The position numbers and the translations under genes are program-made. DNA of 62,920 nucleotides, filler included, from Hausera hauseri (taxonomy: Eukaryota): assembly GCA_046269625.1 (NCBI GenBank). It is 9 parts of 9 records of this genome, joined end to end, with 100 filler letters (N's around TTAATTAATTAA, not from the genome) between each part and the next. Parts side by side here need not be neighbours in the genome. Positions count along the whole stretch, not along the records: positions 17,088 to 26,801 come from JBJURY010304388.1; 8 more parts are not named here. One strand, written 5' to 3'. Below are positions 3,818-53,738 of the stretch, one piece after another. Every line of letters begins with the position of its first letter. Within the stretch, counting starts at the first letter, position 1. The notes below the pieces were generated by a model. It saw nothing but the letters and a program-made list of their open reading frames with translations, searched no databases and was not told the origin of the DNA.

Positions 3818-3878
3818 TTGATTTCAGGTATCGTTGGTTACAATCGACTAGCAAGTTACAGTGTGACAGGAAATTGGA

Positions 3879-5631
3879 TCAAAGTATTGCCGTCTGGACG
3901 TTAGCGACTGTAAACGTCCAATGAAATGATGAGGGAAATTTTGGCAGTGAAAGATAATTTGAAAGTTCCGGCAATATGAAGAGGTTGATCGGAGCAGTAT
4001 ATAAAGGTTTTGTTTTAAGTAGAGAAATCTGAACCGGAAAAGAAAGTGGTAGTAATGAGATCTCTGCGCCGATATCGATGAAAAAGTCTATGGATTGAAT
4101 GTTAGAATTGGAGATAGCAGCTTTTAGTGTAAAGACCGCAAAAGAAGTGTGTCGGTAAGATGAATTAGGTAAGTTTCCTTTGCCAGAATCTGCCGAGAAT
4201 ACTGGCGGTTTTTGGATTGGTGAGTTAGGACGGTTACTGTTAAAGAAACTGGACCGTCTATCAGTGGTGTAGTTATTGTTAGATTTATAGTTACAGTCTG
4301 AAATACAATTCCGAGCATTAGATTCAAATTTTTTATGATAAATGCAAACTATGTTATCTGAGTGTAGATTCGGCGAATAATATCTACACCCTAAACAGCA
4401 TTTATTTGCTTTGTTATTAAATTTGTTATGGTAATAACATATAAATGACCGCGTTGGTGACGGTGTTCGATTTCTGGAAAGAGAACGCGTTCGATGAGGC
4501 GAGGAAGTGTTTCCGTCGATGTAAGGAAAGGTCATTCAGATTATCATTGATGGTGTTGATTGTATGTTGTAGTGCCGCATTTTCGGCGCGTAATTGGTTC
4601 AATTGGTGCTCACTAGATGTATGTCGTTGATTGTCATTGGTCGTAATAGCGGCTGATATGATGGGTTGTGATTGGATATTTAAGACTTCGTGTGCTTTAT
4701 AGGCCAATTCAGCTAACTTATCTAAGGCTTTAGAATCTTCAACAACGGTGAGTAAAGCCCTAATTTGAATGGGTAATGCGTTCAGGAAATATCGTCGAAG
4801 TAAATCTGGGTTGTGTTCCTTAGTCACTCCTAGAGTACGTCAGTGAGCCAACGAGGTACGTAGGAAATCACTAGGTTTTTGTGCCCCCATTTCATTTTAA
4901 TTAAAGAAGCGTTGTATTATCGAATCAATTGATGGTTCTGTCAGTTTTTATACAGCATTGAACAATTGCGTATAAGGGTCAGGGTGTTGAAAGATGTGCA
5001 ATAAGTTATGGATTGAGGCATTTATGGAGTTTGGTAGAAGGTAGAGTAGATTATGGGCTTTGGATAACGAGCCTGTAATACCGCTGGATTGTAACCAGAG
5101 TTGATGAAAGTGGAGCCAAGTTTTGATAGAATTTTCATTGTCTATAAAGTAATCAGAGCAATGTGGGGGTGTAATTGTAAAATTTTTGTGAAAAGAGTTA
5201 GTAGCGGTTGAAGTTGGTGGATGGTTTGATTTGGGATAGTAGAGATTGGATTTGGGTTTTATGGTCACCTTATCTGTGATGTCAATGGTTGGTGAAAAAA
5301 TCATACCGCCGCGGATTTTAGGGTGAATGTGAATACAGAAAAAGCGTTGTGAGGACATGATGTGTGGGCGGTCAGTTAGAATGAAACCATTGTGAGTCAG
5401 ATAGAAATCGCTGAAGGCGGTGATATTATGGATGATGGAATATAATTGTAATGTCTCGGTACGTTGTGTGACGTGTACGGTCTGTATTAAGGTGTTATTG
5501 ACAAAAAGGTAGAAGGAAAACGGTGGTGATACATGGAAAATCGGGTAATGTGGTATCTCGACGTGGTCATTCGAAGTCAAGAGGGTTGCTGTTGCTTTTG
5601 AAGAATCTGACCGATAATTGTGGCTTGACAT
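3879..5631 (-). pseudogene. Ubl-Gag-protease region of A1
   Basis: Ubl ending KIRGG, capsid-like FLNALPIQIRALL, two Cx2Hx9Cx3C knuckles, DIGAEISLLP protease motif. Confidence 0.8.
5305..5520 (-). other. Ubiquitin-like domain N-terminal to Gag (A1)
   Basis: FSFYLFVNNTLIQTVHV...DFYLTHNGFIL...IHIHPKIRGG follows the beta-grasp pattern and di-glycine end of ubiquitin. Confidence 0.7.
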
Positions 5632-6139
5632 TTCATCTGAAACGGATCCAGAAATATTTCTTTGGAATCCTTTCGTTATTCTGCCGCCCTAGATAAATAA
5701 CTGCAATATTTTGTGAATCCAATAACAAGCACAACCATATCCCCATCGTAAAATCTGCACGAAGGAGCCTGCATCAAAAAGAATTTCTTTGTATATCAGG
5801 AACCAATTGTATGATTTAGTTCCTCTGTAAAACGCAACGGAAATGTACAGTTGTTTGGTTCGAGGGGCAAAGGTCTACCACCGAAAAAGATTAAAGTATT
5901 GTTTTCTATTTTACTAAAATTTCCGCACAGAGAGTTAAGATGAAAATATGATCGATCTGTGGACTCCTTATGGTTAATGATTCTATTGCGCATATAACTG
6001 ATACTTACTGAAGAAAGTCGACAATGGCCAGAAGAGAACGGATTTTTTCCATAGTCAGAAACTCTAATCAGATACTCGCTGTCATTAGAAGAATAAATCG
6101 GGCCGACTTTGCAATAGTGTGCCTTACTTCCACCTCGTC

Positions 6140-7720: not shown

Positions 7721-9707
7721 CTTAGTAGTAAGGTAAAATCTAAAATCAAACGAATATTCAATGATGGAATCGCCTAATTTGATGCAAATAGCACCACCTT
7801 GTTTAAATGTCTGTTTCAACAACAGTGGTTCCAAAAGAGGATCCAGTTCTTCACCGACATTTTCTAACAACACTGGTGTACCAAACTGAATACAGTTCTC
7901 CAACGTTCTCACAAAGTCGGAATCTGTTAACTTGATCACCTGAAGATTATTTCTCTTTTCCATATTTTTGATCCATTTATTTGCCTGACCCTGTGGATCA
8001 ATTAGTAGTGGCCATCGACGAGCATTGCTGATTACCATTAGGCTCAATTATTTGATGCAAATATTACCTAATAATAATGCTATTCTCCACCGAAAAATCA
8101 TCAGTTGGAAGACCAAATATATTCCATGCTCTGATTTCAACTGGGTCTCCAAGCGTTAAAACCAGCGAAAATTTATCGGAACAAGGAATATTTTTTTCTC
8201 GAATATTTTTCAACCATTTTTTCGTTTGATCAACTCTAAAAAATGATGTGAATGCACCCAGATATGCTACCACATCACTAGAAAGTAGAATTTCACCAAT
8301 TAAGTTCGTAAATTTAACACCCAAATCTTTTGCAGCTTGAATCCAACGATCTTTTTCACCGCCAAGACCACCAATCAATTGTTCGGCTCGATCCAATTTT
8401 TTCGAGCACCGACCAACATTGTTTTCTAAATCTATTTTTTTCCGTTTATTATTCTCCAATTCCTCTGTGAGTGTTTTTAATTTTTCTTGTACTGCTTTAA
8501 GGGCAGCTCTCTTCTTATTCAATGAATCCATGGCAGCATTATATTCGCCCAAAGCCTTTTCCAGAGCAACCTTTTTTGGAGCTACAACCTTAGCCACTTT
8601 GTCATATTTGTCGATGGCATAAACCCATTTACAAAGACCCTCGGTAGCCGTAGATGCCACTGCAATTCTTTCCGGCTTAAACTCCTCATTCACAATATAT
8701 TTCTCACGTATGACTTTGATATAAGCAGCAGGGATGTTATCTTTGTCATATGTTTTTAAACTTTCTAAGAACTTAATGTCTCCTAGAATTCGTTTTGATG
8801 GTCCCCAAAAGTCTTCTATTTTCTTTCCAGAACCACTTGGATCATTAACTCTGTCGGGTTTAACTCCTCTCAAGACGCATACAGCTTCCATAACCAATCG
8901 AACACCCTTAGGGGTTGATATCATGGTTCTTACAATGGCAATATCAGCAGGTGTCAAGGTTTCCAAGGCTTTAATAGCTGACTCTAAAATTGGTAAGGCC
9001 TCAGCAAGATCACTGTCACATTCATTTTTGATTGCTTCGGCAGCTCTGGCCTGTTCCCCGGCAACTGCTTCATCAGCTTTAACAACTTTTTCTTGCTTCG
9101 CTGCTTCCGTACTTTGTTGCTCTACAATAATCATAGCCTCGTCAACTTCTTTACTGGCTTGCACTAGCTTTGGTTGATAATCTGTGAGTTCTTTTTGCAT
9201 CACAGATATGCCTGAAGCTGCATTCTGTAATTTTTTCAAACCGATTTCATACCGTCTTTTCTGTTTAAGAACTTCTGTTCTCTTTTTTTTCAACAAATTC
9301 ATGAACATATAGATTAGTTCCAAGTAAGACGTTGGTGTCACATAATTATGTCGACTGAGTTCCAACAGAAACTTTTGAGACAGATCTCGAGTAGAAGTGT
9401 GGAACAATTTGCAAAAATCAATGCAACTCATTTTAATTTCACTTTCGAGTTCGATTTCTTCTAAAAATCGAGTAGCCACAGCAGTTAATGCATCTTCTGG
9501 CCAGCTCTGAAACCAATCAATCGTACAGCAGTTGACCAAAGACGGAAATTTCCTCAACCGATTTCTAAATGCATCACCAATAGGACTCATTGCCAATACA
9601 ACGTGCAATTGATCTCGAACTCTCTGAATGAAGAAGTTAAACAGTGCAACCGGAGAACCATCTGTTTGGCGGCTTTTATCTCGCTGTCTATCAATTTGAC
9701 GCATTTC
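7721..9707 (-). CDS. DNAH7: Axonemal dynein heavy chain fragment (DNAH7-like; end of AAA4, stalk/microtubule-binding domain, start of AAA5)
   Basis: MRQIDRQRDK..LHVVLAMSPIGDAFRNRLRKFPSLVNCCTIDWF; RRWPLLIDPQGQANKWIKNME; ends at FRFYLTTK followed by a GT donor. Confidence 0.88.
8028..8067 (-). other. 40-nt GT-AG intron in the dynein fragment
   Basis: AG|gtaatat...taatcag|C; removal restores ENSIIISNARRWP. Confidence 0.85.
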
Positions 9708-11171
9708 GTTATATTCATTGTTATATTTAACCAATGATGCCTCTACTGGAGCTAAATTTTCCTTAATATTAGATACTTTTTCAGAAAGTTTAGCGATCAT
9801 CATTTCCTTTCTCCAAATAAAGAATTTACATTTAAACGGAATATCGCAGCAATTAATAACATAGCGAATTAAAAGTACCTGTTTTAGATAATTCATCGAG
9901 ATTAAATTCCAAATGTTATTCTCAAATTCTTGATTAGTAATATTAGAATTATCAATCACTTCATCATAACTTAAACTGTTTTCTGCATCAGCCCAATTAC
10001 CGGCGGAGTTCCAAGTTCCATTTAAATTTAAAATCGGTTTATCATCAACCAACATTTTCCACGAAGTATTAGTGAAAAACATTAAAGTTTGAGTGAAAGA
10101 TAATTTTTCCATTTTGTAAATATCTTTCGTAAGTACTATATTGCAATGACAAATGTTTGAACCAAATGTCATATTACATGATATTTTACCAACGGTCTCT
10201 GGTTTATTGAAAAATGGATTCAATTTGATGTAATCACAATCATAGTCAAATCTATCATCAAATTGTATTTTAAATTGTATGACCAAACTAACTTCATCAT
10301 TTGTAAATTGTTTTTCAATCTTCGATGGCACTTTGGATATCTTTGAAATTAAACTATCTGACATATCATTCCGAATATTGCCCGATTCAGAATGAAAGAA
10401 ATTGATTTGATCCATATCCATTTTCGTATTTTTCGTCACATTTCCTTTCACTATTATAAATACACACACAATAACTGAACGTGTGCCGGCATCGTCAAAA
10501 TTTTTATACAGATCATTACTCTTAGATAAATAGAGTAAGTTCGGCATATCAATAATCGGATTTATTAAATTTGTAACAATTTCTTTCGCCGTAAATATTT
10601 TTACACTTCTTTTCATCAAAATTAGATCATATCTATAATTTGTTAATTTATCATTTGAACAATATGTGTTCTTTGAAGGGTTATTTGATGACTTTGATGA
10701 AGGATAAATGTAACTGTTGTTAAAAGCTTTATAAATTTTTATCTCGTTTTCATCGATACATTTAAGTTCATTTAATAATTTTTGATCAGTCCGGTAATGT
10801 ATAATTTCGTCTCCGCCGATATCATTTATTATCATAATTATCTGTAATATTTCAACATTATTTTGAACATAGTTACAGTCTTTCCAAACGAAACAGGCGT
10901 GATTGAGACGATAATCGTTAAATCTTCGCATCATCACCTTCCTTTTACAAGTGAACTCTTCCTTTTTGATGGTTTCTCCTTTTCTTATCTTTAAAAGTGT
11001 CCCACCTGAGATGCCATTTGATGTTCGTCTCAGAATAACGTATCTATTCATTTTCGACTCATTTTCCTTTTTATTCGTATCTTTAATTTTCACTTTCGAC
11101 ATCTTTTGACATTGTTGGATAACTTTACATGTATAAGATATATAACTCATCGATTTAACACGGAATCTCAT
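9708..11171 (-). CDS. Unknown ~490-aa N/K/I-rich domain fused in frame to the dynein fragment
   Basis: ~1.46 kb stop-free in AT-rich DNA, no dynein motifs, no AG acceptor at the junction. Confidence 0.6.
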
Positions 11172-11506
11172 CTTTATTTCTAATATCTACAAAGTTCAAA
11201 TTTCTTGACAACGTTTTAAACAAAAACAAAAACTCATAAAGTTTACACAATAAATAAAACTTTACACAATTTACATGATAAAGGTCATCTTGCTTCATAA
11301 TTCCTAGCTACAATTTATTCTTCGTCGATTTGATAGTTACAAGTCATATCTGTTCTGATAACATTTGTTCCACGAGTCTATGGAATTCGTTATCATTAGA
11401 GTTATAGTTGTTTGGCCGAAATCGTGATCTACACCGCGATACACCATCGCCAGCCGTCTCAGCCCCCACCTCTGATTTTAATTAATTATTTTTGATCTAT
11501 ACATTT

Positions 11507-13477: not shown

Positions 13478-13689
13478 TGTAAAATTTTCACAAAATGTAA
13501 ATATGTACTATGTTTTATATTTTTTGAGAACACAAGAAATAGAAATCAAGACACACATGTGCGTGAAGTCCGTCTTACCAATGTTTACCTGTTTGCTTGC
13601 GTGTGTAAAATATAAGTAATATTTAGCTAATATGAGTAATATGCATCTAATACACGGGGAGTATGAATGTGATATAGAAATTATAAAAC

Positions 13690-14200
13690 ACACAACATAT
13701 ATCTGAGCTATACATTTTCTCAGGTTACTTGCATTTTACATACATGCACATACACACCATATATCTTAATCATTCATTTTCCAAGTTACTCACATTTTAC
13801 ATGCACAGACATGCACCTACACACAGACACATCATATATATCTTAATCATTCATTTCTCAAGTTAATCACATTTTTACTCACATACCATATATCTTAATC
13901 ATTCATTTCTCAAATTACTTACATTTTGCAAGCACAGACATACACACACAGCATATATCAGAGCTATTAATTTTCTCAGGTTAGTTGCATTTTACATTCA
14001 TGCACACATCATATATGCTAATCATTCATTTCTCAAGATAATCACATTTTTACTCACACAAAAACACACACACACACCATATATCTTAGTCATTTATTTC
14101 TTAAGTTACTCGCATTCTACCTCACTCAAACATGAACACACGACATATATTTGAGCCATTCCTAGATTACTTACATGCGCAAACACATATCTGAGCTATA
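13690..14200. repeat. Diverged minisatellite (~55-65 bp unit)
   Basis: Repeated catatatcttaatcattcatttctcaagttactcacattttac + (ac)n. Confidence 0.85.
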
Positions 14201-14780: not shown

Positions 14781-16175
14781 TCGAGTTAATCCGCGAAATT
14801 CGGAAGTTTGTGACAAATTTAATATTGTGAATGTTGTTAGAAATCGGGTCTTTTGTATGTGTGTGTGTGTATGAATTTGTGTAAAGTAGATTTTTCTTTA
14901 TTTTCGTACTTTAAAATTTATTCGAATAGGATGTATATGGGCAAACAAATAGGATATATGGTCATTCGAATAGGATGTATATAGGCAAACAAATAGGATG
15001 AAAATTTTAATCTTCCTGATATAAAATCTGTAAAGCAATTTATTGAATCGATGCAGTAATGTAAATTATTACAAATATGTTTAATTTGGAAAACTCCATT
15101 ATTAAAAATATTTTGTTATTACATTTATCTCTACACATCTCTACATAGCCATATTACTTCCAAAATATCTGTATGTTACATGGCCCATATCACATATTGT
15201 CTTCATTTCACCCAAACACACGTATTTTACTTACTTTGCCTTATCATATTCCATAAATTTTATATTTTCTATGTGTTACCCATATCACATACATGTTCCC
15301 GTATTTTACTTATATATCATTCATAATTTTTACCTATATTCCCACTTATTTCCAGGGTTTTACCTGTATTTCCTTGATTTGGCCGCTATTTCCCCATATA
15401 TTTCATGGATATGATCCGTATTTACCAATTTCTGTATTTTATCCACATTTTACCTATTTAATGAGTTCAGTATTAGACGGATAAAATACACATCACTAGT
15501 ATTTACACATGAATGATGTGATATTTTAGTGATACATCTGTGAAAATGCATGAAATACATCCAAACCATACAACAAATTCATATGCACATCTATTGAGAA
15601 ATATATAAAGACATGTGAAAATAAAGGGAACATTAAAATAGCTCCTTCTCCAGATTGTCTAGCTTTGAATTTCGATTAAACGCATGTTTTTGGAATATTT
15701 CTTTAACTCTAAGACTGCTTTATTTATGATAAAAATGCATTCTATCAGTCAAAGACAGCCAGAGTTATTCCACCTCTGTTTTCTACATAGAGTTTATTGA
15801 ACAAGTTGATTGTAATTTATTTGTTGGATTCATGTGATGGTACTCAGTGATGGTACACTGACAAACCACTTATATGCAAATACATCATCTCTATTTTGCC
15901 AATATTTTACATGCGTGATGCTTATGTATATTACCCAAATGTCAATCATATTTGACCAATATTTCACTCATATTCTCTGCTTATCATCTTTATTTCATCC
16001 ATATTTATTAGCCATATTTTATATGCATTACCCATTTTCTATTCATATGTTGCCAGTATTGCTCACATAATAATATATTTTACCCTATTTATTTATATCT
16101 TATATTTTACCCATATTTCCTACACATTATCCATATTTTACCTATATGTTCTCCATAATTTACTATATTACCAAA

Positions 16176-16335
16176 ATATTAGCTGTATTTTACATAGATC
16201 ACTCATGTAACTTGCATATTAACTGTATTTTACATACATCACTCATGTAACTTGTATATTAGCTGTATTTTCCATATATCACTCATGTAACTTGTATATT
16301 AGCTGTATTTTCCATATATCACTCATGTAACTTGT
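16176..16335. repeat. 40-bp tandem repeat x4
   Basis: atattagctgtattttccatatatcactcatgtaacttgt with period 40 (16181, 16221, 16261, 16301). Confidence 0.92.
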
Positions 16336-16987
16336 TTATAACCTGCATTAAACTCATATTTCCAACATATTTTACCTTTTATACATCTTATTTTATGCTT
16401 ATTGCATCATATTCTATGCTTATTATGTTACATTTCACGTCGATTACATCATATAATCACACTATTTGTCCCCATCTAATCACACTATTTCGCCTATATA
16501 TTGTCCATGTTTTACCTTTAACAACGGCAGCCAAGTTTCTTTTTTTTCAATCAATATATTACTAAGGTTGAATTTCCTGTTTAACAAAGTAAAATGTATT
16601 CGTCTAATTATCACTAATTTCTTCATTCTATATTTATATTAGGTTTACACATGATTGATGACATGTTATGAGCCAAATATTAGATGAATATGTATTAGGT
16701 TCATAAACCGTAAAGAATGCACAATTAGTTAAATATTAGTTCATGCATAATATTTTCCAAATATGTTAATAAAAGTGTATAAAAATTGCGACATTTTTAT
16801 TTTCTTATACTTTTGTATTATATTACAGAACTCATTATATAGAAAGTAACAGTATAACAAGATTTCCTATCGAACAGCCTCTTATGCAGAAAGTACGCTG
16901 AACTATGTACCCAAACTTGCATAACTATAAAAATTCTGGAAATGCCACTGGACCAAAATATAATTTTAAAGAAATGAATTATCTGTA

Positions 16988-17087: not shown

Positions 17088-17845
17088 GCTAATCGCGAAG
17101 TATTCTGATACAAGACCGGAAGGTCTTGTATATAACGTTTTCCTTCGACATTAATCGGTACATCTCTTTTCACACATTAGTAGGTTAATAGGACTTCTCC
17201 CATGACTTCCGAAGATTCTTTCTCTCATTGGAATTGTCGGGAATGCTAATTCAGGATGCATTATCAAGATTGAAGCCTAAAAGTAGTGCTATTACTGCAA
17301 TGAAGAAAACTCAACTCGAAGAGTTAGTATACAGATAACGTGTCTTAACGTTGGACAAAGCAATTAAAATTTCGACAGAGTAGAAAAAGGATAGAGTCAT
17401 ACAGATTTTACTAAGAAAGACGTAATACCAAAATGACGCCAGCTTAAGAAACACTTGCAGAGACATGGACATAAATATTGTGTTTCGGGTGATAAGGATC
17501 ATGAATATATTTTATTTTACGAACGCAAAAGACGAAAATTGATACTAATCCCAAAAGGTTTACGAGCGGAAGTGTTGATGGCAAAACATGACTCATACTC
17601 AGCTTGACACATGCCTTGGAAGAAGACGCTAAAAATAATACTGAATAAATATTATTGGCACGGTATTTACATTGATGTGAAAATTGCGTAAGTACCTGTG
17701 AACTGTGCGCAACCAAACAGAAAAAGGTAAAAAAGATTACGTAGCTGGACTGAAACCAATAAACATACAAGATAGACCCATACAAGCTATATCAATGGAT
17801 ATTGTGTGACCACTGCCTATAACCCACAGAAATAACAAATATATT

Positions 17846-18601
17846 TTGACCAGTATTGATCGACTAACTCATTTCGTGGAGTTAATAGCACTAATTGACC
17901 TTGCAAAAGCCATATTAAGAAAAGTTTTCTGCAAGTATGGACCTCTCGATCAGTCCTTGACCGATCGAGGAAGAAACTTTACAAGTGAATTATTTAATAA
18001 GATTTCTAAAATCTTTGATATCGAACGGTTAACCACTACTGCATATCACTCGCAGTGTAACGGAATGGTTGAACGGATGAATACAACAGTTCTGAGAGTC
18101 TTGTCGACCGTAGTCGCGAAGGACCAAAAAGACTTGGACGAATTCTTAGAAGGAACACAATTTGAGATCAATTCTACCCCGCATCCCGCCACAGGATTTA
18201 CACCATTTTTTATGATGTATGGACGCGAAGCGATATTACCTACGGACTTAGGAATGATTCCGTATTACGCAAATCCAGAAGATTTAGAGCCAAACTTCGC
18301 AGAAGTCTTACAGACGAGATTACAAAATTGCTGGGATATAGCAAAAATGCTAACTCTCAAATATCAAGAGCAGTTTAAAAAACAATATGATAAGAAGGCC
18401 AAATCTCACGATTTAGAAAAAGGAAACTGGATCAATGTGCATTATCCAGTCGCACAGAAAGGTATATCATTAAAACTTACTCGTACCGGACGCGGGCCTT
18501 ACGAAATTATTCGAACCACACCAAACACAGTTTACATTAATAAAAATGGCAAAGAGGTAGTATCCATACAGAGAATCGTTAAGACAGAAATAAGACCATA
18601 A
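17846..18601 (+). pseudogene. Integrase core + GPY of B1
   Basis: IDRLTHF, TDRGRNFTS, TTAYHSQCNGMVERMN, GRGPY. Confidence 0.92.
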
Positions 18602-19985
18602 AAACGTTATAATTTGCGATCCAGCCAAAATCAAGACAAAAGAAAGACAAGGACATCCTCTGTAATCAATAGACCAATATCTTACGTACAGATAATCTTA
18701 GCATTATCGTTAATCGCTTATTATGTTCCCAAGACCCAAGCGCAATGGTGGGACGATAGTGAATCCAGTTTAACGGATATATATATGGAATTAGTAAAAA
18801 TGAAAGGGAAACTAAAATGAGAAAGGAACAGAAACATTTGGAAGGACAAAAAGATGTTGAAAACATAAAAACAATAAAAGCATATGACGCAGATTGGAAG
18901 AAACATGGCATTTGGTTCCAAATCAACAAGGCTATTAGAAAGTATATGAAAATTCGTATAAAGTGCACTGATCAAATTAGTAAAAGGATAAAGGATTGCG
19001 AGTTCGGATATGGAATCTACAGAAAATGTTGAGAACTGAACTTCAAACAAATATATAGACGTGTAGTACTCATGTATTATTACACCTACAAAGTCATTCG
19101 AGCAAACATACGACCATTAGTGGAAATAACTATGTCAAAACAAGCCTTAGCTGATAGCATAAAGTTATCTGACATAGTCCAAAGTACCGATCCTCAAATT
19201 AAGTTGTTAGACAAAAATATAGTTGAAGTTTCCAAGAATTTAAAAGTGCATGCATCCAGAAAAACCTAGAATAAGTTTATCTGAAGCCTACCAGATCTCG
19301 GTTCGATTTATACCATCTAAAAAAACAAATCCGCCGGCAGGATATTGCGCTGTCAGCCGACGGAACCCAGAACCGTACTGTAAAATACCCGAAGGGCCCA
19401 AATACGGAATACAATTCGACCTATATAAGGTCAGACCAAATCAGCCTAGCATATACCTAAGAGGATATCGTCTAGAAAGACAAAATTGGAAGATTCCAAT
19501 CAGTACGACGACAACGACTAGTACCATTACTAAAATCATCACAACGAGTACAAGACACGGAAGACAACCGGGGAGTATTCCTATTAAAAACAAGATATTC
19601 TTTGTCGAGGAAAGATTAAACTACGACATAGAAATATATTTTCGAACCTTATATGATAAACAAAAGGTAATACTTAAAAGGAATACACAACAGACAGAAT
19701 GTCATTCACTAAAATCTCAGACAGAATACATAATACAAATGAATTCAGCAGACAATTTCCTTACGCACGTTAATAGAAAATATTTACCCAGATTCGCAGA
19801 AAAATTGAGACGTAGAAGTTACAAGTACCGCATATATGACAACACAGAAACCAATTGAATTAACAGCGCTACCCATTTTATTAATTATCGGAGTGTCAGC
19901 GTTCGTCCTAATAATATTAATAGCGTCATTTTATGTAACTGCCAAAAATTGTAAAAAACAGCCAAAAATAAAGACGGAGAGATAA
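18602..19985 (+). pseudogene. Env-like type I membrane protein (frameshifted)
   Basis: Signal-like ISYVQIILALSLIAYYVPKTQA|QWW, Cys-containing ectodomain, Thr run, TM LPILLIIGVSAFVLIILIASFYV + basic tail; homolog in B2. Confidence 0.72.
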
Positions 19986-20015
19986 GCGTGGTATACCGAG
20001 TGCTTTATATGATAA

Positions 20016-20045
20016 AATAACCTGACAACTACAGATCGGGTTATT
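20016..20045 (+). promoter_or_regulatory. Conserved stem-loop between env-like ORF and accessory ORF
   Basis: AATAACCTGA-caactacaga-TCGGGTTATT; identical stem at 27795..27824 on minus strand. Confidence 0.65.
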
Positions 20046-20132
20046 CTATTATCAGACAGTGAAGATATTTCGTTTTGAAATACGAATCTGTCTAAGGAAT
20101 AACTTAAATTATTCTTATTTCAGATTAGTATT

Positions 20133-22384
20133 ATGACGAATCAAAAGGAAGGCCACGATCAGATCGACGTCGATGAATTTTTAAAGAGGGACGCAACAAT
20201 TATAACCCCAAATTCAAAAGCCATTTACCAACAAATCCACCTGGAATTACAGAATAAGAAATCGATTGAATATAATAAAGTGGATGAAATACCCAACAGT
20301 CTAAAAGGGATTATTGAAGAAAATCGAGTGCTGCGGTTATACGCAATGCGGAATAATGAAGACTCCCGAGCTTACAATTTAAGTAGCCTATTGACATTCG
20401 AACTAGAACATCACATTGACGTGTATATACATTTAGCAGAAGAAGTTTACTATAGACTGGCTGAAGAAAACTGGGATTCAAACAAAGGACGGCAATATAA
20501 GTTTAGTACTTTTAAGTTGCGTAGAGAGGTTATCCGAAAAAGAAGTGGAATTGAGAATAGCCGCCCTACCCGTAAAATTAATGATAGAAATCACCTGTGA
20601 GGAAATTCCAACTATACCCTTGCCTCCCTTGATATACCATCAATACCCGACGGAAGATCAAATAGACCAACATTTAGGGACGTATAAACTGGTACAAGAC
20701 GGACGGAACGGCGGTATAATTGCAAAAAACTACGGAGAAGGAGACGACGGAATTTCCATTCCCATTGAGGTCTCGATTAGAGACATGAACGTAGTAGAGG
20801 CTTACTGTAGCCTAATCATACCTCGGAAGAGAGTAAGTGAGACGTTTGCGGAAATAACGGGAATCAAAGAAAAGGATTTAATAGATGGAAAAGATGTAAA
20901 AATTGTAGAAATGGCGCTAAATCACTGCTTGTATTGATGTATGATTGCGGGATTTCAAACCCAGGAACAAATTAACAAACTGAAGATAAATTCTAAAATA
21001 TAGCATGAATACGAGAATTTTGGGCTTAACCTAAGATTAAAGAAAAGATGGATAATGTAAACCGACCAATCCCTATGACCATAGAAACACAATTTAAAGC
21101 GATGATAGAAATCATGAATGCAGCCCAATATAGAATTAATCGGCAGTTGTCTCCTGCCAAAAGAACCCAATATTTGCGTGATATTTACGCTATGATCAAA
21201 TGGGATCATGTATGGTCAGCATTAAGTCCCAAAAACAACCTGCAACGCATTACGAACCCACAAGAATTGAATTCTCGTCATCGCAAGCAATTTCACCCAT
21301 ATTCGCCAATACGAATTGTAGAACAAAAAAGGATAATAATATCCAAATTACAGTATCGAATGAAGAGGAGCTGATACAGCATAAATTAAGAAGAGTCACC
21401 TATGGATTCCAAACGCCAAAAGAGACCCAAAAAAGTGAAGAAAGCCGTTTAGGGACATCAACCAAAAAGCGCAAATTGAGGAACCCATCTTCCGAGAAGA
21501 AAACGAAATCAATATTCGGATTCCTAAAGAAAAAAGAAAAAGGATCATCTCAAATCAAACGAATCGAAAACATCCTACCGAAAGTATACCAAAGAAACTT
21601 ATGGAAGTGAATGTTCTTAGAAAGAGAAAAGAAGATAAGAAAATAACAGCGATAGCAAGTCTAGAAGATACGAAAGAATATCCTAGCATCCTAATAATGG
21701 CAGAATATGTAAGCCATGGGAAGATTAAAGAATCGGTATTTTATATCTACACAGTACCAGTGATAGAGATACATGAAAATGCCTATGTACGGATCGACCC
21801 AAAGCTAGGAAGATATTTAATACCGGTATTCAAGTCAAAAATAGGAACTAAGAAAATAACCGTGCCAGTCGACAACCAAACCAGAATAGAGATGAAAAAA
21901 CAATAAAAGAAAATGGGAGTCCCAGACTTAGATGCGCAACCCGTAATTGAATGGACCTTAATAGCTGTTAATGGAGACTTACGAAAAAGTTCGATAGATC
22001 CCGATCAAAAAACAACTACATGGATACCTATATAAGAATCCCAAAGGATTATTATTTCAAGAGATAACTTGGGTGACAGATTGCGATCTGGACAATGATA
22101 CCGGAAACTTTTGCCCCGTGTGCGAGGCTAACTTGTGGCAAGGCTATGTGATTTTAGCAAATAGGAATTGTAGACATCGTCATTGTCGAGACTGCTTGGA
22201 ACAATGGACATTAATTAATGGGAAAACGACATGTCCAGTATGTCGAGCAGAGGCATCTCAGTTAAAATATTTCTCACGTGGTGAAAATAATCGAGTAGTT
22301 GAGATAAAAGCACCTACTGCCTACTACTTGGAACAGAATTTCCAAACAAATACGCGAGTTAACACTGGACGATTCAAAAGATGA
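20133..22384 (+). pseudogene. Accessory ORF of family B: unknown domain, DEDDh-exonuclease-like domain, basic region, C3HC4 RING
   Basis: Six consecutive ORF pieces after a tttcag acceptor; EVSIRD..LIIP..EITGI..L..G; CPVC..CRHRHCRDC..W..CPVCR; N-terminal part conserved in B2. Confidence 0.7.
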
Positions 22385-22482
22385 TTTAAGAGAAAGGCTA
22401 AACGCATTACAACACCCAAATTATAGCGCCACCACTTCTGGTGCTTTAGGCACATCCGAGGGTGTCGCTCAGGGAGGAGAGA

Positions 22483-23227
22483 TGTTATGAAATAATATGA
22501 ATAATGTTCAACCAATTGCTGTACGTAGTAGTCAAATTTGTAACTAAATATTTCATTTAGTAGTATTGATTGGAATTTCAGTAGAAATTAGCAGTAGTCG
22601 AATCATGAAAAAAATAGACATTGACATTTAAAAATTATGAATAGTTAGAACTAATCATTAAGTGTGTCAGAAAATTAGAAAATAATTGGTTTGTGCGATA
22701 GAAAATCGACACTTACGTTGAACCAGCTTATATATAGAGCGAAGTTATACGGAAAGTCAGAAAAATTTTGTCTTCGAGTGTAGCGTCGATTTGAGAGGAA
22801 AGCCGAAACTAATCAGACAGTCTCTTATTGTGGAAACTATTCAAGGAAGTCGATATTGTAAATCAGTGAATCGAAGATAGTTATTAGACATTATCCTTAA
22901 ATTGGTGTTCGATATTATTCCTGGTAAATTTTGTGTTGAATATATATTGTTATTTTAAAATTAATTTCTCTCTATAGTTTCACATCGGCTCTTAAAGCTG
23001 ATTGGCGTCTCACTAAGTGCTAAAATATTACTTAACTTATATAGGCACCAGATTTGTTAACGTACGCACAGGACACAGCATTCGTTTACAAAACGCACGA
23101 AAAATCAACATACTAGGCACATTCGTTTAACGAGAACGTTAAACCGAATTTGCACATTAGTCGATTAAAATTTAAGAGTAACGTTATATATAAGGGGGAG
23201 TGATAAGGGCCACCCTAATATATGACA
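22483..23227 (+). repeat. 3' LTR of B1 (~745 bp)
   Basis: Follows PPT; TG..CA termini; shares blocks with 52972..53736. Confidence 0.85.
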
Positions 23228-24748
23228 CGATTATAGATATTGATAATACTAAAAGGGGGGTTGGAAGGCGGTGGACGTAAAGTGAAATTCGTTAAATTTG
23301 AGGAAATGCTATACGAATGGATCGATAAAGAACGCAAACAAAAGCATCGTGTTACTTGAAAGATAATTAAAATAAAGGCTCCCTAGATTTTTCGATTTGA
23401 GCGTGATGGTGGCGATGTTGTATTCGTGGCCAGGGAAGGATGGTTGTGGCGCTTTATGATGAGAAAAAAAACGAGCTTATGGAGGAAAACTACTGTTTGT
23501 CAAAAACCGCCTTGTAACTGTGTCCCTAAATTAGTGAATTTCGCATTGTTTGTTCGAAATTTAAGTATTTAGCGTAGTTATCCAGAAACATGATTTTTAC
23601 TTGCATAGAAACAGCGGTATGGTTAGATTGCTCAGGATTAACTACAGTGGAGTGCACGAGAAATTTTTATTAAAATCACCAGTCATGCTAAGGCGAAAAT
23701 CAGTGTCATGCTTTGTGCAAAAAGTGATGGAACAAAATCCCGACCTTTCGTTTTATAGGATAGGCAGCGTCAAATTAAACAATTGGAAAATTTTTGCTGA
23801 AGTCTCGAAATATGCTACGCTGGAAAAAGTTGGATGAACAACTACTTAGTTACTGAATTTTTGAAGAAAGTTATCGGTATACCATTATTCCACCGACGTG
23901 TTTTGGTGTGGGATAGTTTTCGTGCACATATCAGTGATGCAACTAAAGCCGAATGCAGAAAGCTAAAAATTGATTTGGCAATTATTCTGGGTGGGTGTAC
24001 ACAATATATACCTACTCCTGATTTTTTATAGAATAAGCCATTCAAAGCCAGGATCTGCGATTACTATGATGAATAAGTGGTAAATGGGTCAGAGGATTAC
24101 ACGAAAGGTGAAAACGTTAAAGTTCCATCATTTGAACTTAGATTAAAGATTCCTGGGAGTCACTCAGCAGAAATACGATCAGCGCGTCTTTCAAGCTCTG
24201 CGGAATTTCGAAAAGTGTGTATGGGAGTGAAAATGACCTGATCATATGTTTTAAAGAAGGAAAAGAATGCGAAAGCAGTCGAAAACTACTTCAAGAAAAG
24301 ATGAATATCAAAGAATATTATGAATCAGAAGAAGCTGATAATATTACTGAGATGACGGATGATACAGTGCTAGAACCCCTGGATGCTGATGAGGTTGAAT
24401 AAAAGACATCTATGGTTTTCTTTTTTTATATTATATATGTAAAATTTTTTCTTAGTTGTGAAAACTTTTCTAAATTACAAGTAGGACGTTTTGGTAAATT
24501 ACATAGGAAAGTTGTCATTATATTCTTGTAGGTATTTTGTTTTTAGCTTTTTATAAATTGCAAAATTTACCTTTAAATAGGTAACTAATTTCAAAAAGCT
24601 TCGTTAAAGGAACGCTTCCAATTCTGCTGAATCAATTTTAAAAGTATAAACGAAGTCTATCAAATAAGAGCACCCATCAAATTAAACGCACTCTTAACGA
24701 CATGTGTGAAAAAATAAACGCATTGTGCGTTTAATTGAGAGAATACTT
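23228..24748 (+). mobile_element. pogo/Tigger-like DNA transposon (CENP-B HTH + DDE), decayed, 5' end cut by LTR B1
   Basis: GGGRK..EEMLYEWI, GWLWRFM, VLVWDSFRAH, GGCTQYI..D..NKPFK; terminus gtgcgtttaattgagagaatac with subterminal taaacgca repeats. Confidence 0.85.
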
Positions 24749-24850
24749 GTTCAATCTTCACTAATTATTTCGGGAGAGGCTTCACTTAAATATTAATTAA
24801 TGGGGAGAACAAATTCGCGTATACCTTACTTAGGTGCAGTAAATGGGATT

Positions 24851-25475
24851 TGTAGAGACAGATCAGTCGAAACTTACCTACTTATTAGTAAGTAATGTGT
24901 GTGGGGCAGTGTCTTTACTTATTATTTAGTTACTAAGGTTTATTTACCTATTGATTTAGTTGAATTACTTTGGTGGTCGTCAGGTCGGGTTAACGTGGGC
25001 GACCAAAACTGCCAATTATTTATAAATTACTTGGTGATTTAACTACTTATAGGCCACAAGTAACTAAAGGAAAAATAAATATAATTGATATTCAAAATGA
25101 TAACAATAATACAAATATTGATAGTGAAAACGTAATCAAACACTTACACGAAGTCATAAATTGTCTTCAGTACGCATTCAAGATGTATTCCGTACGTATT
25201 CCCGTAAAATGTACACAATGTCTCCTTTTTATATACCTAGTATGATTGCAGACTTTGTTCACATTAATTCATAGTCTCAACGATAAAATTCATTAGGTAA
25301 CATAACAAATCACACATGCATAATAAAAATGTCAGTACATAATAAAAATGATAACTAAAAATTGTTAATGCTGTAAGATAATAGTAGATAACAGTTTGTT
25401 AAATTACAGTGCCAATTGTTACCATAAGTTACCATGATATTACAATTCACGATATACTGATGATTAAAATCTACA
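24851..25475 (-). repeat. Probable solo LTR
   Basis: TGTAGA..TCTACA inverted termini, TATATAAAAAGG on minus strand; no TSD found. Confidence 0.4.
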
Positions 25476-25921
25476 CAATATCCACATACTGTATATATTT
25501 TTCTAAGAAAAATAACGAGGTTACTTTAGATTTATTTTAATTAAAAAATGTCCCAAATTGTCTTATTCTGCTGTTGAACATACCCCGAATCTGACCGAAC
25601 CCTTACACAATCCTTACACCGAAGGGTAATAATTCTTACTTAAAAATGAACAACAAACATTTCCTTCAACAATTAAATTTATCTGAAAAAGTAAAAGTTT
25701 GATCCTACATCTGTTAGAGATGAAATTGGATTAAGATTAATAATGCAATTTAAAGATGTTAATGTTAAATTTCCTCACATTACGGAAAATGAAATATGTG
25801 AACAACTTGGAATGAGTGATAAAACTTTTAGAAGTTATATGCAAGATTTAGTAATTCCTTCTTTATATTGACAGAATACATGAAAAATATATTATGAACA
25901 TAAACACGAGTAGGAGAAATG

Positions 25922-26344
25922 AGCATTCGCCATCAGCCCCGGGGGTCTGCACATGTGAAAATCGATATTGCACATGTGCTAATCAATAATGCACCCAGAA
26001 CACTATCTATCGATAAAGTGCTTAGCAACCGTGACAAATGGAACCGTTGCTATGCACACTTGCACATTTCACAAGTCCATCGCTACATATTGCACCCGAT
26101 CGAATCGATTAGCACAAAGTGTTATTCGATAGTGCACGTTGAGGCGCATCGATCTGTACACTGCAGTCCACCTGCACATGTGCATTTGGGTGCAAATCAA
26201 TAATATCGGATTTCCGATAATTTCAATTTTGCTGATTAGGACATTGCACGGGGTGCAATATATTGCAAAAACGGTACACTGTGCGAATCGACCGAATGGT
26301 CTTCGAATAATATCGACTCGAAAGTGCAGGTAGTGGCGAATACC
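25922..26344. repeat. Foldback/MITE-like element built of TGCA/TCGA palindromic motifs
   Basis: Imperfect inverted ends gcattcgccatca / tagtggcgaatac; many tgcacatgtg and atcgat. Confidence 0.45.
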
Positions 26345-26801
26345 CATAGGCTTTTAGGTCCTAAAAGATCAAAATTCGCTATTACGTTCAGCGGGTACAG
26401 ATAGGAAACCGAGTATGGGGATCTCGAATATCGAGTCCGATATTCGAAATTCTAAAAATTTTTGCCCTAATACCAAACTTCGAAATTTTGAAAAAATTTG
26501 TTGACTTCATTCGATTCCCCATGTGCCCAAACCCCTAAATCCATTAGAATTATTTTATGAAAATGTGCTATATAGATATAAAATCAATTAATCGAAATAA
26601 GCAAAACGTGCATTTTAAGCTCAGTGAAGCATGAAATTAATGAACCTAGTAGCGCATACAGATAGGAACCCATAAATGGCGAATCGGAATATGACAACAT
26701 ATTCGAAATCGAGCATCTGACAATGGTATTGGGCTTTACGAAGACTGCATTTAAAAACAGTGAAAATACAGGTGTGCTTCCAATTAAATTGAACAATGCA
26801 T

Positions 26802-26901: not shown

Positions 26902-27712
26902 CTATCATACAGCCATAAAGACAATGGTCTAACTCTAAACGGACTTGTTGGATATCTGTCCCTCTTATGAGTTGGTCCCTTCTTAACCCAGTCATCTCTG
27001 CATATGACTCTCGGACATGCTTCCGGGGGTTTATTACTGTGGATTATATTTCAGATCCGTCTCTTTCTCTAATAGATATCTCGATGGGTATTCCATATCC
27101 ATCGTCTACTTTTCCTCAATTCCTTGCTAAGATTCTTATGTTACGTCCATCTTGAACTAATCTATATGATTGCTTATGTTCGTCCTTTTCTACTTCTGTC
27201 GGAGTCCGTTCAAATTCCGAAACCGGCAAACATAAATTGCAGTTCTCTTTATAGGTCACTTCGAACATAGGTTTAACAGGAAGGGCTGCTACTATAAATT
27301 CCAGACCATAGTTGATACTTTCTAAGCCCTGTTTATTTATTCTAAATGTACTAAACCGATAGTGATGCCCTTCATTGGAGTTCTATGGTTGGTCTTCTAC
27401 TCTGTAGTATAGTTCCCCGTCAGCTAGGTGTATGTATACTTCTTCAGTTCTTTTGGTCCGTTTTTGAATCAGTTCCTTTAGTGAGTGAGCTCTTGCTTGG
27501 TCATTTTCACGCATTGCGTATAGGTAAACGGTTCGATTTTCTTCTGTTATACGCTTCAGGTCATTTGGGATCTCGATCACCTTTGAAAATTCGATTGCAG
27601 TTTCGGCTTGGAGGGCTTCCGTTATGCGTCGGTATATGGATTTTGATTTGGGTACTGTCGCATGTTCCTTTAGGAAATTGTCGACGCTAAATCGACTAGT
27701 CATACTTACCAT
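26902..27712 (-). pseudogene. Accessory ORF of B2 (truncated by gap)
   Basis: FSVDNFLKEHAT..EENRTVYLYAMREND..EVYIHLA..LVQDGRN..IPIEISIR..YAEMTGL..LDHCLYGCMI aligns with B1 20133-20950. Confidence 0.8.
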
Positions 27713-27859
27713 TCTGAAAGAAAATACAAAATAAGGGTCAATCCTAAAACAAAGTATTGTTCTAAAAATGAACCAATTCTTTGTTTGATGGTGGAATAAC
27801 CCGATATGTAATTGTCAGGTTATTTCATCATTAATTTTATCCTGTGGTACCATTACCCT

Positions 27860-29240
27860 TAATTCCCTCTCGGTGATTTTATGACGCTTTTTATGACATT
27901 TTCCGGTAATCAATCGACAAAACGAAATAAAAATTATGAGAGCTAATATTGACGTGCCAATAACTGATATTAATGACGACGTTGTCTATTTAGTCAAATT
28001 TTTCGTTTTAACGGTAGTCGTAATCTCATCCTTCGTTTTTTCGTTGATTAATGGCTTTGTTACGACAATCTCGTTTAATGTCCGTACCGTAAATGTTCTA
28101 CTTTGTCTGTTCTCGGCACTCATTTATATTACGTAATCTATTTTGGGTTTCAGACCGGTACATTCGATTCGATAAATACCTCTAGCTAATGTTATTTTTT
28201 ATTATTGTATACTGTTCGACAGTTAATCTTTACGTCGTAATTAAGTGCTTCTTCGACAGCAAAAGTTATTTCGCGCTGTTGTGCCCAATATTTTACAGGA
28301 ATTATTTCTAGATCCCTTTGAGACGATTTATTTGTTGGAATGATTTTGATGAGTGCAGGAGTAGTGGACTTTGTTTTCTTATTCGTTGCTGTTTCGACTG
28401 AATTCGGCTTAATTGGATTTCTAAATCGGTAACTTCCTAGATAAACACTCGACTGGTTTGGTCTGACTTCATATAAGTCTAACTGAATTCTATAATTATA
28501 TTTCTGGGGTAATTTGCAGCATCTGTTCGGTCGCTCGACATCGACTTGACAGTACTGGTGGCTGTAAGCTTGTATGTTCTCTTTCAGAAACCGGACTGAA
28601 ATTACTCGACCGTTAATTAATCGTCATTTTGTGTTTATTTGAACACAATTGTCCCTTGGATTTTCTGTTATACTGGCGAAATTTTCTTCCAGCATCCGCT
28701 TTACTGGATCGACGGACTGGAGCATTTCGTTAGGCTTTATCCCAGAATGCCTGTTTCCGGCAGGGATGACCAATTGGAACTGTGGTTCTATTTCATAGGT
28801 TTTAGATAATTTCGGTGAATACAGTCGATAGGTAAGTTTATAAGTGTGTCCGAAATCCGTATTGCAACACTGTGTATGCTCTCCGGGATCAAAATCACAG
28901 TTCTTTGTTTCTTTTGTCATTACATCAACCAGAACAATTTGAAATCTTCCAGAATTGTAGTGTGGTCTCTGTGCCTTGAATCCCACGCATGACTAGTTCG
29001 GGGAGTAATAATGAATTGTAAGTGATTGTAACGACGTAATATCTTCTTGATTCTGTGTTTCTTCTATTGTCGGTATCTTTTCCGTTTTTCGCGCTTCGTA
29101 TACATTCTTTAGTGTGGATCCGTCGTGCCACCACCGAGCTTGTGTTTTCGGAATACAAGAAGTTATTAATGATAATGCTCAAACTATCTGGACGTACGAT
29201 ATCGGTCTGGTGATAATTGATGAGGTCTTGTTTTCTCGTG
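27860..29240 (-). pseudogene. Env-like ORF of B2
   Basis: RPISYVQIV*ALSLITSCIPKTQARWW; IQLDLYEVRPNQ; TM SLISVIGTSILALIIFISF. Confidence 0.7.
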
Positions 29241-32200
29241 ATCTTAGATTGTAACATTTAACTGGTCTTATATCTGTTTTAACCACTCTTTCGATTGATA
29301 CGACTTCCTCTTTTCCGTTTTTATTGACAAAACTGTGGTCGGCGTTATGCGGATGATTTCATAGGGTCCTCTTCCGGTACGTGTCAATTTCAAGGATGTA
29401 CCTTTCTTTGCGACTGGATAATGTATATAACCCCAATTTCCCTTTTCCAAATCATGAGGTTTAATCTTTTTGTCGTATTGCTTTTTAAATTATTCCTGAT
29501 ACTCGAGCGATAATGTTTTTGCCACTTCCCAACATTTCTGCAATCTTGTCTGTAAGACTTCCGCAAAGTTTTGCTCTAAATCTTTGAGATTCTTTTCGTA
29601 CGGTGTCATACCTAGATCTGTGGGTAAGATTGCCTCTCGTCCATACATTATAAAGAATAGTGTAAATCCTGTTGCTGGATGTGGAGTTGTACTTATCGCG
29701 AACTGTGTTCCTTCTAGGAAGTCATCCCAAATCCTTTTGATCTTTTGCCACTACTGTTGATAGTATGCGAATGACTGTTGCGTTCATTCGTTCGACCATT
29801 CCATTACATTGTGGGTGATATGCGGTAGTAGTTAAACGTTCAATTTCGAATATCTTGGTAATTTTTTTGAATAATTCGCTTGTGATGTTCCTTCCTCTAT
29901 CTGTTAGGATTTGTTCTGGTGGTCCGTATCTGCAGATAATCTTTCTTACCACTGCGTCAGCTAGAGTTTCCGCCTTTTGATCTAATAGTGCCACTAGTTC
30001 GACGAAATGCGTTAGCCGGTCTACACATGTTAGAATGTATCTATTATTTTTGTGAGTTTTAGGCAAAGGTCCTACTATATCCATAGACATGGCTTGCATG
30101 GGCCTATCCGGTACATTTATATGCTTTAATTCTGCTACATAGCCTTTTGTTTTCTTTTGTTTTGTCGCGCAAACTTCGCACGCTCCTACCCAATTCTTTA
30201 CATCAATATAGATGCTTGGCCAATAGTATTTATTTAATATTCTCTCTAATGTCTTCTTCCAAGACATATGCCCGGCTAAATATGAATCGTGTTCGGCCAT
30301 GAGTACATCGATACGTAATCCTTTTGGAATAACTATCAGTCTTCTTTTTTTTCTCTTGTAATATAAAATATTATCTTGATTTTATGCATGATATTTATGT
30401 CCCTGTTTTTGTAGGTGCTTTATCAGCTATCGTCCTTTGGGGATCGTATCATTTTGTACAAACTCGATAATTTGTTGAATAACCGTGTCTTTAACTTGTT
30501 CAGTTGTAATTCTAATCGTTTTATCCGATATTAGAGTTCTTTGTCGCTCAATCAGCTGCTCAAGTTGTGGTTTCTTTAATGTGATGATCGCACTGGTTTT
30601 TGTCTTTAATCTTGACAGTGCGCCAGCGTCGACGTGTTTATTACCTGGTTTATATTGGAATTCAATATTATATCGTGAGATCTCCTCGATCCAACGGTTT
30701 AATCTACATGTTGGGTTATTAGCTCGTCCTTTTAAGGTTGTAACTGCCTTGTGGTCGGTCACTATTATGATCTTTTGCCCGTAGACGTAAGCATTAAAGT
30801 GGCGTAGTGCTTTCTTTACGGCTAACGTTTCTAATTCGGTAACCGAATAATTTTTCTCTGCTTTCTTTAATGAGCGTCCTCCATAGGCTATTGGATGTTC
30901 TAATTCTTCCTTTTCTCGTTCCTGAGCTAATTCGTATCCTATGCTTTCTTTACTTGAGTTTGTTTTAATGATAAATGGTCGATTAAAATCCAAATATCTT
31001 AAAACTGGTTCACTTGTCAAAACTTTCTTCATTTCATCAAATGCCCTTTGTTCCACTTCTGCTCATCTCCACTTAGTTCCCTTTTTAAGTAGGCGATATA
31101 GTGGCGCGTTTATTTTTGAGTTGTCTGGTACATAAGTGGCATAATATCCACATAGGCCTAACCAGTGTCTTACCTCTTTTTGATTCTGTGGTTCCATGCA
31201 ATCGGATATTTTATTTAGCAAGGATTTATCTAGTTTTGATCCTCCTTCTCCAACTATGTGTCCAAGATAGGATACTGCATTCTGTGCCCATTTACATTTC
31301 TTTGGGTTTAGTTAGATCCCTGCTTGTTCTAATCGCATGAGTGTATCCTCAATTTCCTTTAAATGTTCCTCCTCCGTTTTTGATGCTATCATCACGTCGT
31401 CTAAATACTCGCATGCATGGTCAAGTCCCATAAGCATCTTATTCATCATTCTGGTAAAAATAGCTGGTCCTGTGGTGATGCCGAAAGGCATAACGTTAAA
31501 TTCGTATACGCCATCGTGTGTTTTGAATGCTGTCTTATATCGATCTTCTTCTTCGATTTCCACTTGCCAGCATCCCGATTGTAAGTCGAGAGTGGTGAAC
31601 CATTTTGCTCCTGAAAGTCTATCTAATGCCTCCTTTACTGATGGTAGCGGGAATAAGTCTTTCATCATTAGCGTGTTCAATGCCCGATAATCTATACAAA
31701 ATCGATGTTTTGTATTTCCTTTCTATTTACCCATCAGTATGGGTAAGTACCATGATCGGTAACTTGGTCAAATTATGTCGGCCTTTAACATTCGCTCTAC
31801 TTCTTTAGTTATCTCTGGTCTCAATGAGTGAGGAGGCGGACACACTTGGGCATTTTCTGTTCTTCTAGATCGATTTCGTCATTTGAGCCGGGTTTCTTCC
31901 TCAATGGAATTGTTAATCTTAGAGCCTTTGCTCTGTCTATCTTCTTCATTTTGTGCGATTATTGAATTGTACTTGCATAATAGTTCGTAAAACTTACAAT
32001 ATGCTTCAGGAGAAAATTTTGTTTCCACGTAAGGTGGAAATTCAGAACACTTATATGGTTTTTCCTCTATTGTCACTGCCGATACTCTGTACGTGTGGCC
32101 TAAAGTAGTTAAGGGAGTTAATGCATTGTTCACTAATCTGATAGGTATTCGTCCCGTTACTACTCTACACAAAATATTACTAAACATAAGGTTTGGATCG

Positions 32201-32481
32201 ATATTCTCTTGGGCTCAAAGTATACTGGTAAATCCTCGCCCTGTCGGATCTGCGCAAATATTATCATTTCGATTCTAGGCGGAATGTCTTCATCTACTAA
32301 AATCCATACTTCGCCCGATTTCCTTTCTTTTATTACTTTTATCCCATTTATAGGTTCGAGCTTAACTAATTTTCCGCTGTGCACATCGATTGCCATATCT
32401 GGTATCTGTTTCAATATATCGCAACCTAGTACTACATCGTCTGTTAACTGATCCATTATCGCAAATTCGTGTTGAAGTGCT

Positions 32482-53736: not shown

Positions 53737-53738
53737 TT

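Follow-up and report, generated by a model that had tools for sequence, protein, structure and literature searches.

A predicted FN3-type membrane protein probably continuous with the integrase frame of a Ty3/gypsy retrotransposon family in Hausera hauseri

A 62,920-nt stretch of DNA from Hausera hauseri (assembly GCA_046269625.1; hereafter the window, with coordinates counted along it) contains copies of a Ty3/gypsy (Metaviridae) long terminal repeat (LTR) retrotransposon in which the integrase is followed, probably in the same frame, by a predicted type I membrane glycoprotein with predicted fibronectin type III (FN3) domains. On balance, we favour a reading in which this product is co-translated with Pol, freed by cleavage at a signal peptide within the chain and employed in attachment or targeting, not in fusion. 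The window consists of pieces stitched by N-linker-N joins, and two of these pieces hold the copies that are central here, B1 on 17088-26801 (+) and B2 on 26902-32481 (-). B1 and B2 are separate, decayed and diverged copies of one Ty3/gypsy LTR element family and are not neighbours.

A phmmer search of 1.84 billion protein representatives returned two unbroken relatives of the protein encoded downstream of the integrase, P0032 (479 aa, 38%, E 7e-55) and P0033 (189 aa, E 4e-5). P0032, which is encoded on a 4939-nt ENA contig, is the only full-length unbroken relative, and consists, in this order, of a signal-like stretch, a helix, two four-Cys repeats, a Ser/Thr-rich stalk, a third domain, one membrane helix and a basic tail, the last residues of which are YDRIT. 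The features of B1 and B2 on which the argument rests are the following.

17402-18598 (+): decayed integrase of the Ty3/gypsy Pol of B1 (Pfam rve, E 1.4e-5); core and GPY region open from 17810
18599-18601 (+): B1 stop codon, one codon ahead of the conserved RYNLRS, a minority state in the family
18602-18685 (+): basic integrase-tail linker, RYNLRS...RPISY, in the integrase frame and without a Met
18671-18742 (+): internal signal peptide predicted from hydropathy, comprising RPISY, a hydrophobic core and ...KTQA; predicted cut after 18742 (after residue 35 in P0032)
18860-19140 (+): domain 1, likely FN3-like, an internal repeat of domain 2 with the same four-Cys pattern; B1 stop at 19030
19210-19500 (+): domain 2, predicted FN3 fold (P0032 model)
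19500-19570 (+): Thr/Ser-rich stalk (38% Ser/Thr in P0032 residues 286-322), disordered in the P0032 model
19570-19790 (+): domain 3, predicted FN3 fold (P0033 model and Foldseek)
19869-19940 (+): single transmembrane helix (19-residue Kyte-Doolittle value 3.05 at 19869; helix 430-458 in the P0032 model)
19941-20025 (+): basic cytoplasmic tail ending YxxI-T; a frame change breaks the B1 tail, and other contigs have indels at 19962-19998
29209-32479 (-): B2 Pol (protease end, reverse transcriptase, RNase H, integrase), decayed (Pfam RVT_1, RT_RNaseH, RT_RNaseH_2)
27815-29208 (-): B2 copy of the FN3 membrane-protein open reading frame (ORF), 35-39% identical to P0032 and P0033; stop in the hydrophobic core at 29181-29179

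The B2 Pol contains RVT_1, RT_RNaseH, Integrase_H2C2 and rve in this order, the latter two above the Pfam cut-off, with the protease end recognized by eye. The best PDB match of its reverse transcriptase is the Ty3 enzyme (E 3e-78; next match 4e-54), with foamy virus at 4e-30 and HIV at 3e-9. The hallmarks of an LTR element are spread over B1 (polypurine tract and TG...CA termini) and the related copy B3 (a primer-binding-site-like stretch), and no single piece holds a whole element.

B1 and B2 are 71% identical in nucleotide sequence over the integrase (72-76% at the amino acid level) and 57-67% identical in two measured downstream blocks. Beyond the integrase, the B1 ORF carries about four frame breaks (near 18785, 19240, 19750-19840 and 19960-19980) besides its internal stop, and the B2 ORF carries five stops and one frame break. 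A preliminary description of this DNA had read KTEIRP*KRYNLRS...RPISYVQIILALSL from B1 and KTDIRPVKCYNLRS...RPISYVQIV*ALSL from B2; both readings proved exact letter for letter, the former on the (+) strand with its stop at 18599-18601 and the latter on the (-) strand with its stop at 29181-29179. The B1 stop codon differs from the matching B2 codon at all three bases, and because of this, of the many breaks in both copies and of their 71% identity over the integrase, B1 and B2 alone are thin evidence for frame continuity.

In one sequencing run, 6051 contigs align to B1, most of them less than 95% alike, and the family is old and many-copy. The junction (18500-18780) is covered by 421 aligned contigs, for which only differences reaching at least 40% are listed. 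At the first base of the B1 stop (18599; 37 contigs), 686/1073 of the depth (64%) differs from B1, which turns the stop into a sense codon; no indel reaches 40% across the junction, and no listed difference creates the stop of B2. The earlier proposal was that each stop is private to one copy and that the ancestor likely had a continuous Pol-Env ORF. An ancestral open frame from the integrase into the signal-like stretch is supported by these contigs, in which the B1 stop is missing from the majority of the depth, the B2 stop is not common among B1-like copies and no frame break is common; the contrary outcome, a stop after the integrase in most copies, was checked in the same contigs and was not found.

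Selection acts in the Pol frame across the junction. Of the 19 listed differences, 12 are synonymous in this frame, six change a residue and one removes the stop, compared with 4/19 and 3/19 synonymous in the other two frames and an expectation of 23% over all single changes; for the signal stretch alone, six of eight are synonymous. Between B1 and B2 over 18652-18756, third positions hold 16 of the 26 differences, with 12 synonymous versus 10 changed codons in the Pol frame, two versus 19 and two versus 20 in the other frames, and 50 versus 28 in the integrase control. A hydrophobic tail after the integrase occurs in none of 28 other gypsy Pols and is therefore not a generic integrase feature, and an [RK]Y.LR-like motif is present near the C-terminus in two of these 28 relatives, which fits RYNLRS as an integrase tail. 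A literature search on the motif yielded nothing usable. We consider continuity of the frame from the integrase into the signal stretch to be quite probable within the family.

It is very unlikely, in our assessment, that a real stop splits Pol from the membrane-protein ORF in part of the family and is read through at a low rate, as happens in SIRE1. As much as 36% of the depth may retain the B1 stop, but the majority of the depth and B2 are open at this codon, the stop precedes the conserved RYNLRS and does not lie at the signal boundary, and B1 has many other random breaks.

The signal-like stretch of B1 reaches an 11-residue Kyte-Doolittle value of 2.58 at 18686, and 18 of the 29 positions of the signal region are invariant across B1, B2 and P0032. 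We place the cut after KTQA by the -3/-1 rule, and we infer from the sequence that signal peptidase would release the protein at this internal site. The ORF likely extends beyond position 19985, where the preliminary description had ended it: another frame of B1 reads LYDKIT-stop at 20025, matching the ends of P0032 and P0033. Of the proposed ectodomain of about 430 aa with a transmembrane segment and a basic tail, the latter two stand and the size does not, the ectodomain being about 390 aa in P0032 and the whole mature protein about 440 aa.

The fold of the ectodomain was assessed on models of the two relatives. The P0032 model (mean pLDDT confidence score 57; 76-82 over residues 191-260, most of domain 2) takes the shape of small beta-sandwiches on a stalk, with domain 1 partly folded. 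Its best match among 48,161 chains is a human fibronectin FN3 domain (Z 9.4, root-mean-square deviation (rmsd) 2.2 over 85 aa); Z values below 8 are common according to the tool's own warning, and five chains reached 8. The 50 rows listed comprise 40 animal FN3/receptor or FN3-binder entries and 10 bacterial Ig-like entries. For the P0033 model (mean pLDDT 59.5; 75-84 over residues 41-100), all 43 rows among the Foldseek PDB matches listed are FN3-type, a few of them (e.g. monobody chains and irisin) presumably so, and 6msv superposes with a TM-score of 0.76 and an rmsd of 1.9 over 83 residues. Superposition on the seven-strand FN3 sandwich was thus obtained for domains 2 and 3, in predicted models of unbroken relatives. 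Domains 1 and 2 of P0032 align to each other with an hhalign score of 23.3, and 40 shuffles reached no more than 14.1. Some rows of the P0032 search span both domains on tandem FN3, with an rmsd of 7-13. The ESM Atlas features give FN3 at 0.87 for P0032, a lead only.

At the sequence level, the curated Pfam fn3 cut-off of 25 was not reached (13 bits and E 0.12 for P0033, no fn3 match for P0032), and the FN3 assignment is therefore a fold-level call on shallow models. The ectodomain pieces of the window had no Pfam match, and when P0032, P0033 and the alignments A2 and A3 were compared with PDB sequences, nothing meaningful emerged. PHROGs gave no match, no locus was found in the JGI metagenomes and IMG/VR, and a word-index search returned P0032 alone. 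We predict an FN3 fold for domains 2 and 3, and extend it to domain 1 by the repeat only.

The first ESM Atlas match of P0032 is an unnamed arthropod cluster (433 aa, 166 members, 0.88), which may be distantly related to it or may be a receptor-like protein of similar kind. A legume lectin suggested by the ESM Atlas for one B1 piece (at most 0.89) was below the lead threshold and was set aside, the folds indicating FN3.

The preliminary description had noted the lack of a baculovirus F-type motif, and we likewise found no R-x-K/R-R furin site, either in the two relatives P0032 and P0033 or in three pieces tested from the window, and no fusion-peptide-like stretch in P0032, whose ectodomain has a 15-residue Kyte-Doolittle maximum of 0.65. 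Among its two suggestions, a different fusogen or a surface protein, the latter is favoured because the models give FN3 domains, and the former is not supported. A Foldseek search of viral models named no fusion glycoprotein among 50 rows, an absence that excludes nothing, and produced weak whole-chain matches (TM-score 0.1-0.2; phage tail repeats and a carp herpesvirus ORF). Neither a class I fusion fold or Pfam family nor the five-domain class III (gB) fold is among the listed matches, where absence does not exclude either, but the folded parts match FN3. The Env-like position, the type I topology and a helix at residues 42-74 of the P0032 model would suit a novel viral-type fusogen, but the FN3 matches and the lack of a furin site or fusion-peptide-like stretch speak against it, as does a size smaller than that of the F-type Env of the rotifer element TelKA, about 600 aa (PMC5408684). 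We regard a fusogen as highly improbable, and the models make it very probable that the 'Env' product is an FN3-type non-fusogen.

How such a protein could be made and used can be outlined as follows. A ribosome finishing Pol would expose the hydrophobic stretch, and the chain would dock on the endoplasmic reticulum, where signal peptidase would cut after KTQA and the type I ectodomain would be glycosylated (P0032 has four N-glycosylation sequons). The YxxI tail might sort the membrane product through endosomes, and the integrase would keep the signal remnant until a protease trims it, much as in flavivirus capsid-prM. The fusion of Pol to the signal also predicts an unusual integrase, membrane-tethered from birth. 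For a product that lacks fusion machinery, binding is the most plausible role; in the weakest step of the scheme, the FN3 domains, on the cell surface or on capsid-carrying vesicles, would attach to a surface protein of the host and so direct uptake, by analogy with the role of the fly protein Sas for dArc1. Polyprotein release as the main route and an attachment role, taken jointly, seem to us slightly better than an even prospect. The further idea that this lineage swapped its fusogen for a captured host-type FN3 receptor module, fused to Pol via the internal signal peptide, as its own targeting ligand on capsid vesicles and hence a third, non-fusogenic class of Env, is tentative, and we hold it to be possible but doubtful.

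The main alternative function to attachment is that of a decoy receptor. The polyprotein route would be the same, and the product would be a host-modulating decoy or cytokine-receptor-like mimic acting with the RING finger protein of the element on the host cell. Many of the fold matches are cytokine receptors (IL20R2, Z 8.4; TSLPR, 8.2; IFNGR, 8.0), the element does have a RING ORF, and the planarian Burro elements bear ubiquitination and apoptosis domains (PMC6431247). However, the receptor Z values lie within about 1 of that of fibronectin and single out no subfamily. The slot directly after pol is, moreover, the usual site of transmission genes. We judge a decoy to be decidedly unlikely.

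Several observations weigh against release of an attachment protein from Pol. The sense reading at this codon of B1 covers 64% of the depth, in a single run that may be the window's own sample. A fused Pol-FN3 protein was not found among 4232 longer word-index candidates or 28 integrase matches, both of them weak tests. On the structural side, domain 1 is only partly folded, both models are shallow, with one model of five clearly best, and domain 3 matches neither domain 1 nor domain 2 above shuffles. A common fold says nothing of function, and Sas is not a homologue, no sequence link between it and the element protein having been found. Furthermore, P0032 is called as a separate 479-aa protein with Mets of its own, 11 and 2 residues before RPISY, and may either be a separate gene in the lineage that carries it or form the tail of a pol that has been broken. 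Finally, B1 and B2 have in common two YAG sites at the junction, 18670 and 18689, each with 9-10 pyrimidines within 15 nt, which are possible splice acceptors.

The last two points would suit a protein made mainly from its own message, either spliced from the 5' LTR/gag start or begun at an internal ATG, with the Pol continuity incidental or limited to a subfamily: the Met of P0032 precedes a complete signal peptide, Oikopleura Tor elements use a spliced env mRNA or an internal promoter (PMC4402516), and the env of gypsy elements is otherwise a separate ORF according to a review (PMC6431247). Against this stand the absence of an in-frame ATG at the integrase-signal junction in B1 and B2, with none created by the majority differences, and the conservation of the junction at the protein level while third positions vary. 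There being no stop at the junction, Pol translation must enter the signal stretch. We therefore consider a separate message unlikely as the main source and retain release from the Pol polyprotein as the favoured route.

Downstream of the membrane-protein ORF, and in the related copy B3, the family has the following further features.

20130-21000 (+): ORF X, common to B1 and B2; no Pfam, PHROGs or PDB match
21050-21905 (+): ORF Y, broken
21998-22384 (+): RING finger ORF just upstream of the polypurine tract; matches Pfam zf-RING_2 above the cut-off (E 1.1e-7)
22471-23227 (+): polypurine tract (22471-22482) and 3' LTR (22483-23227; 745 nt, TG...CA); 3' part of the LTR 74% identical to 53426-53736
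53426-55224 (+): B3, a related copy with a 5' LTR end, a primer-binding-site-like stretch and a gag-like ORF (gag by eye)

ORF X encodes about 280 aa, has its B2 counterpart at 26903-27730 (-) and is 33-48% identical between the two copies; an idea formed by eye, that its C-terminal half is a DEDD exonuclease, gained no support from any library. The gag-like ORF of B3 had no Pfam match and is called gag from its position and a degenerate zinc knuckle seen by eye. At 54082-57131 (+), B3 has an Asn/Arg-rich stretch within this ORF and then coding sequence rich in charge for about 1.9 kb, the piece ending before any pol is reached, an arrangement that recalls how Gag is extended in giant gypsy elements.

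The other pieces of the window contain dynein fragments, ankyrin fragments and further gypsy elements, a content that points to a eukaryotic and likely an animal host. A 1040-aa stop-free frame at 8064-11186 (-) comprises an intron-less dynein heavy-chain segment in its C-terminal 600 aa (AAA_8, MT and AAA_9) and an unrelated N-terminal part, and is possibly a captured or processed gene. An ankyrin-repeat ORF at 49870-50712 (-) adjoins the gypsy elements at 38-48 kb. These belong to a second gypsy family with (-) copies at 1023-5700, 38284-41798 and 42948-47650, two of the three being tandem, 4.67 kb apart and 87% identical. Directly after the B1 LTR, at 23280-24400 (+), lies what by eye is presumably a decayed pogo/Tigger-like transposase, and a fragment at 32582-33000 (-) likewise appears by eye to resemble a Rex1/Babar non-LTR element. 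Tandem repeat arrays with 40-nt and about 70-nt units are located at 16136-16375 and 13688-14160, respectively.

Among known systems, the metazoan errantiviruses surveyed by Chary and Hayashi (PMC13524379) likewise are many-copy elements with a Ty3/gypsy Pol followed, before the 3' LTR, by an ORF with a signal, an ectodomain and a transmembrane segment, but in the available text of that survey all Env proteins are sorted as F or HSV/gB fusogens, whereas the protein described here has predicted FN3 domains, lacks a furin site and a fusion peptide, is in frame with the integrase and is followed by three further ORFs. In Atlas virus and the nematode belpaoviruses, a membrane glycoprotein also forms the C-terminal part of a polyprotein that includes Pol and is read in one frame, ending a single Gag-Pol-Env ORF in Atlas virus (PMC9094657); these, however, belong to the Belpaoviridae and have a class II fusogen of the phlebovirus-like GN/GC type, in contrast to the Ty3/gypsy Pol and FN3 domains of this family. 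The giant gypsy element Burro shares an env-like region within a polyprotein and a RING along with other host-type domains, but its env is an F-type homologue between gag and pol (PMC6431247), not an FN3-type protein after the integrase. The rotifer LTR elements with ORF3s (PMC5408684) and the MDG1-group elements with sORF2 (PMC11952523) are gypsy-like and carry extra non-canonical ORFs, some with membrane helices and some with Env-independent spread, which in the MDG1 group proceeds via a short fusogen (PMC11952523). Their products, however, are 210-230-aa transmembrane proteins, GDSL or DEDDy enzymes, or short FAST-like fusogens; none is described as FN3 in the available text of the two papers, and the word 'fibronectin' is absent from that of the rotifer ORF3 paper (PMC5408684).

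Our literature searches turned up no published gypsy element with an FN3-type ORF, although supplements, Repbase and subscription journals could hold the family. Surveys of env-carrying gypsy elements that sort Env into the fusogen classes F and gB would miss an FN3 gene. The presence in the env slot of an FN3 membrane protein that is selected and family-wide suggests that LTR elements can gain surface functions from host-type receptor modules and not from viruses, and with the FN3 ORF, spread independent of Env, or modulation of the host, becomes open to test. A parallel in architecture is fly Sas, which has three FN3 repeats, one transmembrane segment and a short tail with a tyrosine motif, binds dArc1 and directs vesicles carrying Gag-derived capsids to receptor-bearing cells (bioRxiv 10.1101/2022.09.06.506798). 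Sas is a 1693-aa host gene product with VWC domains, and the parallel is a functional analogy only; if the targeting-ligand reading is true, the FN3 protein would be an element-encoded counterpart of the Sas-dArc1 system.
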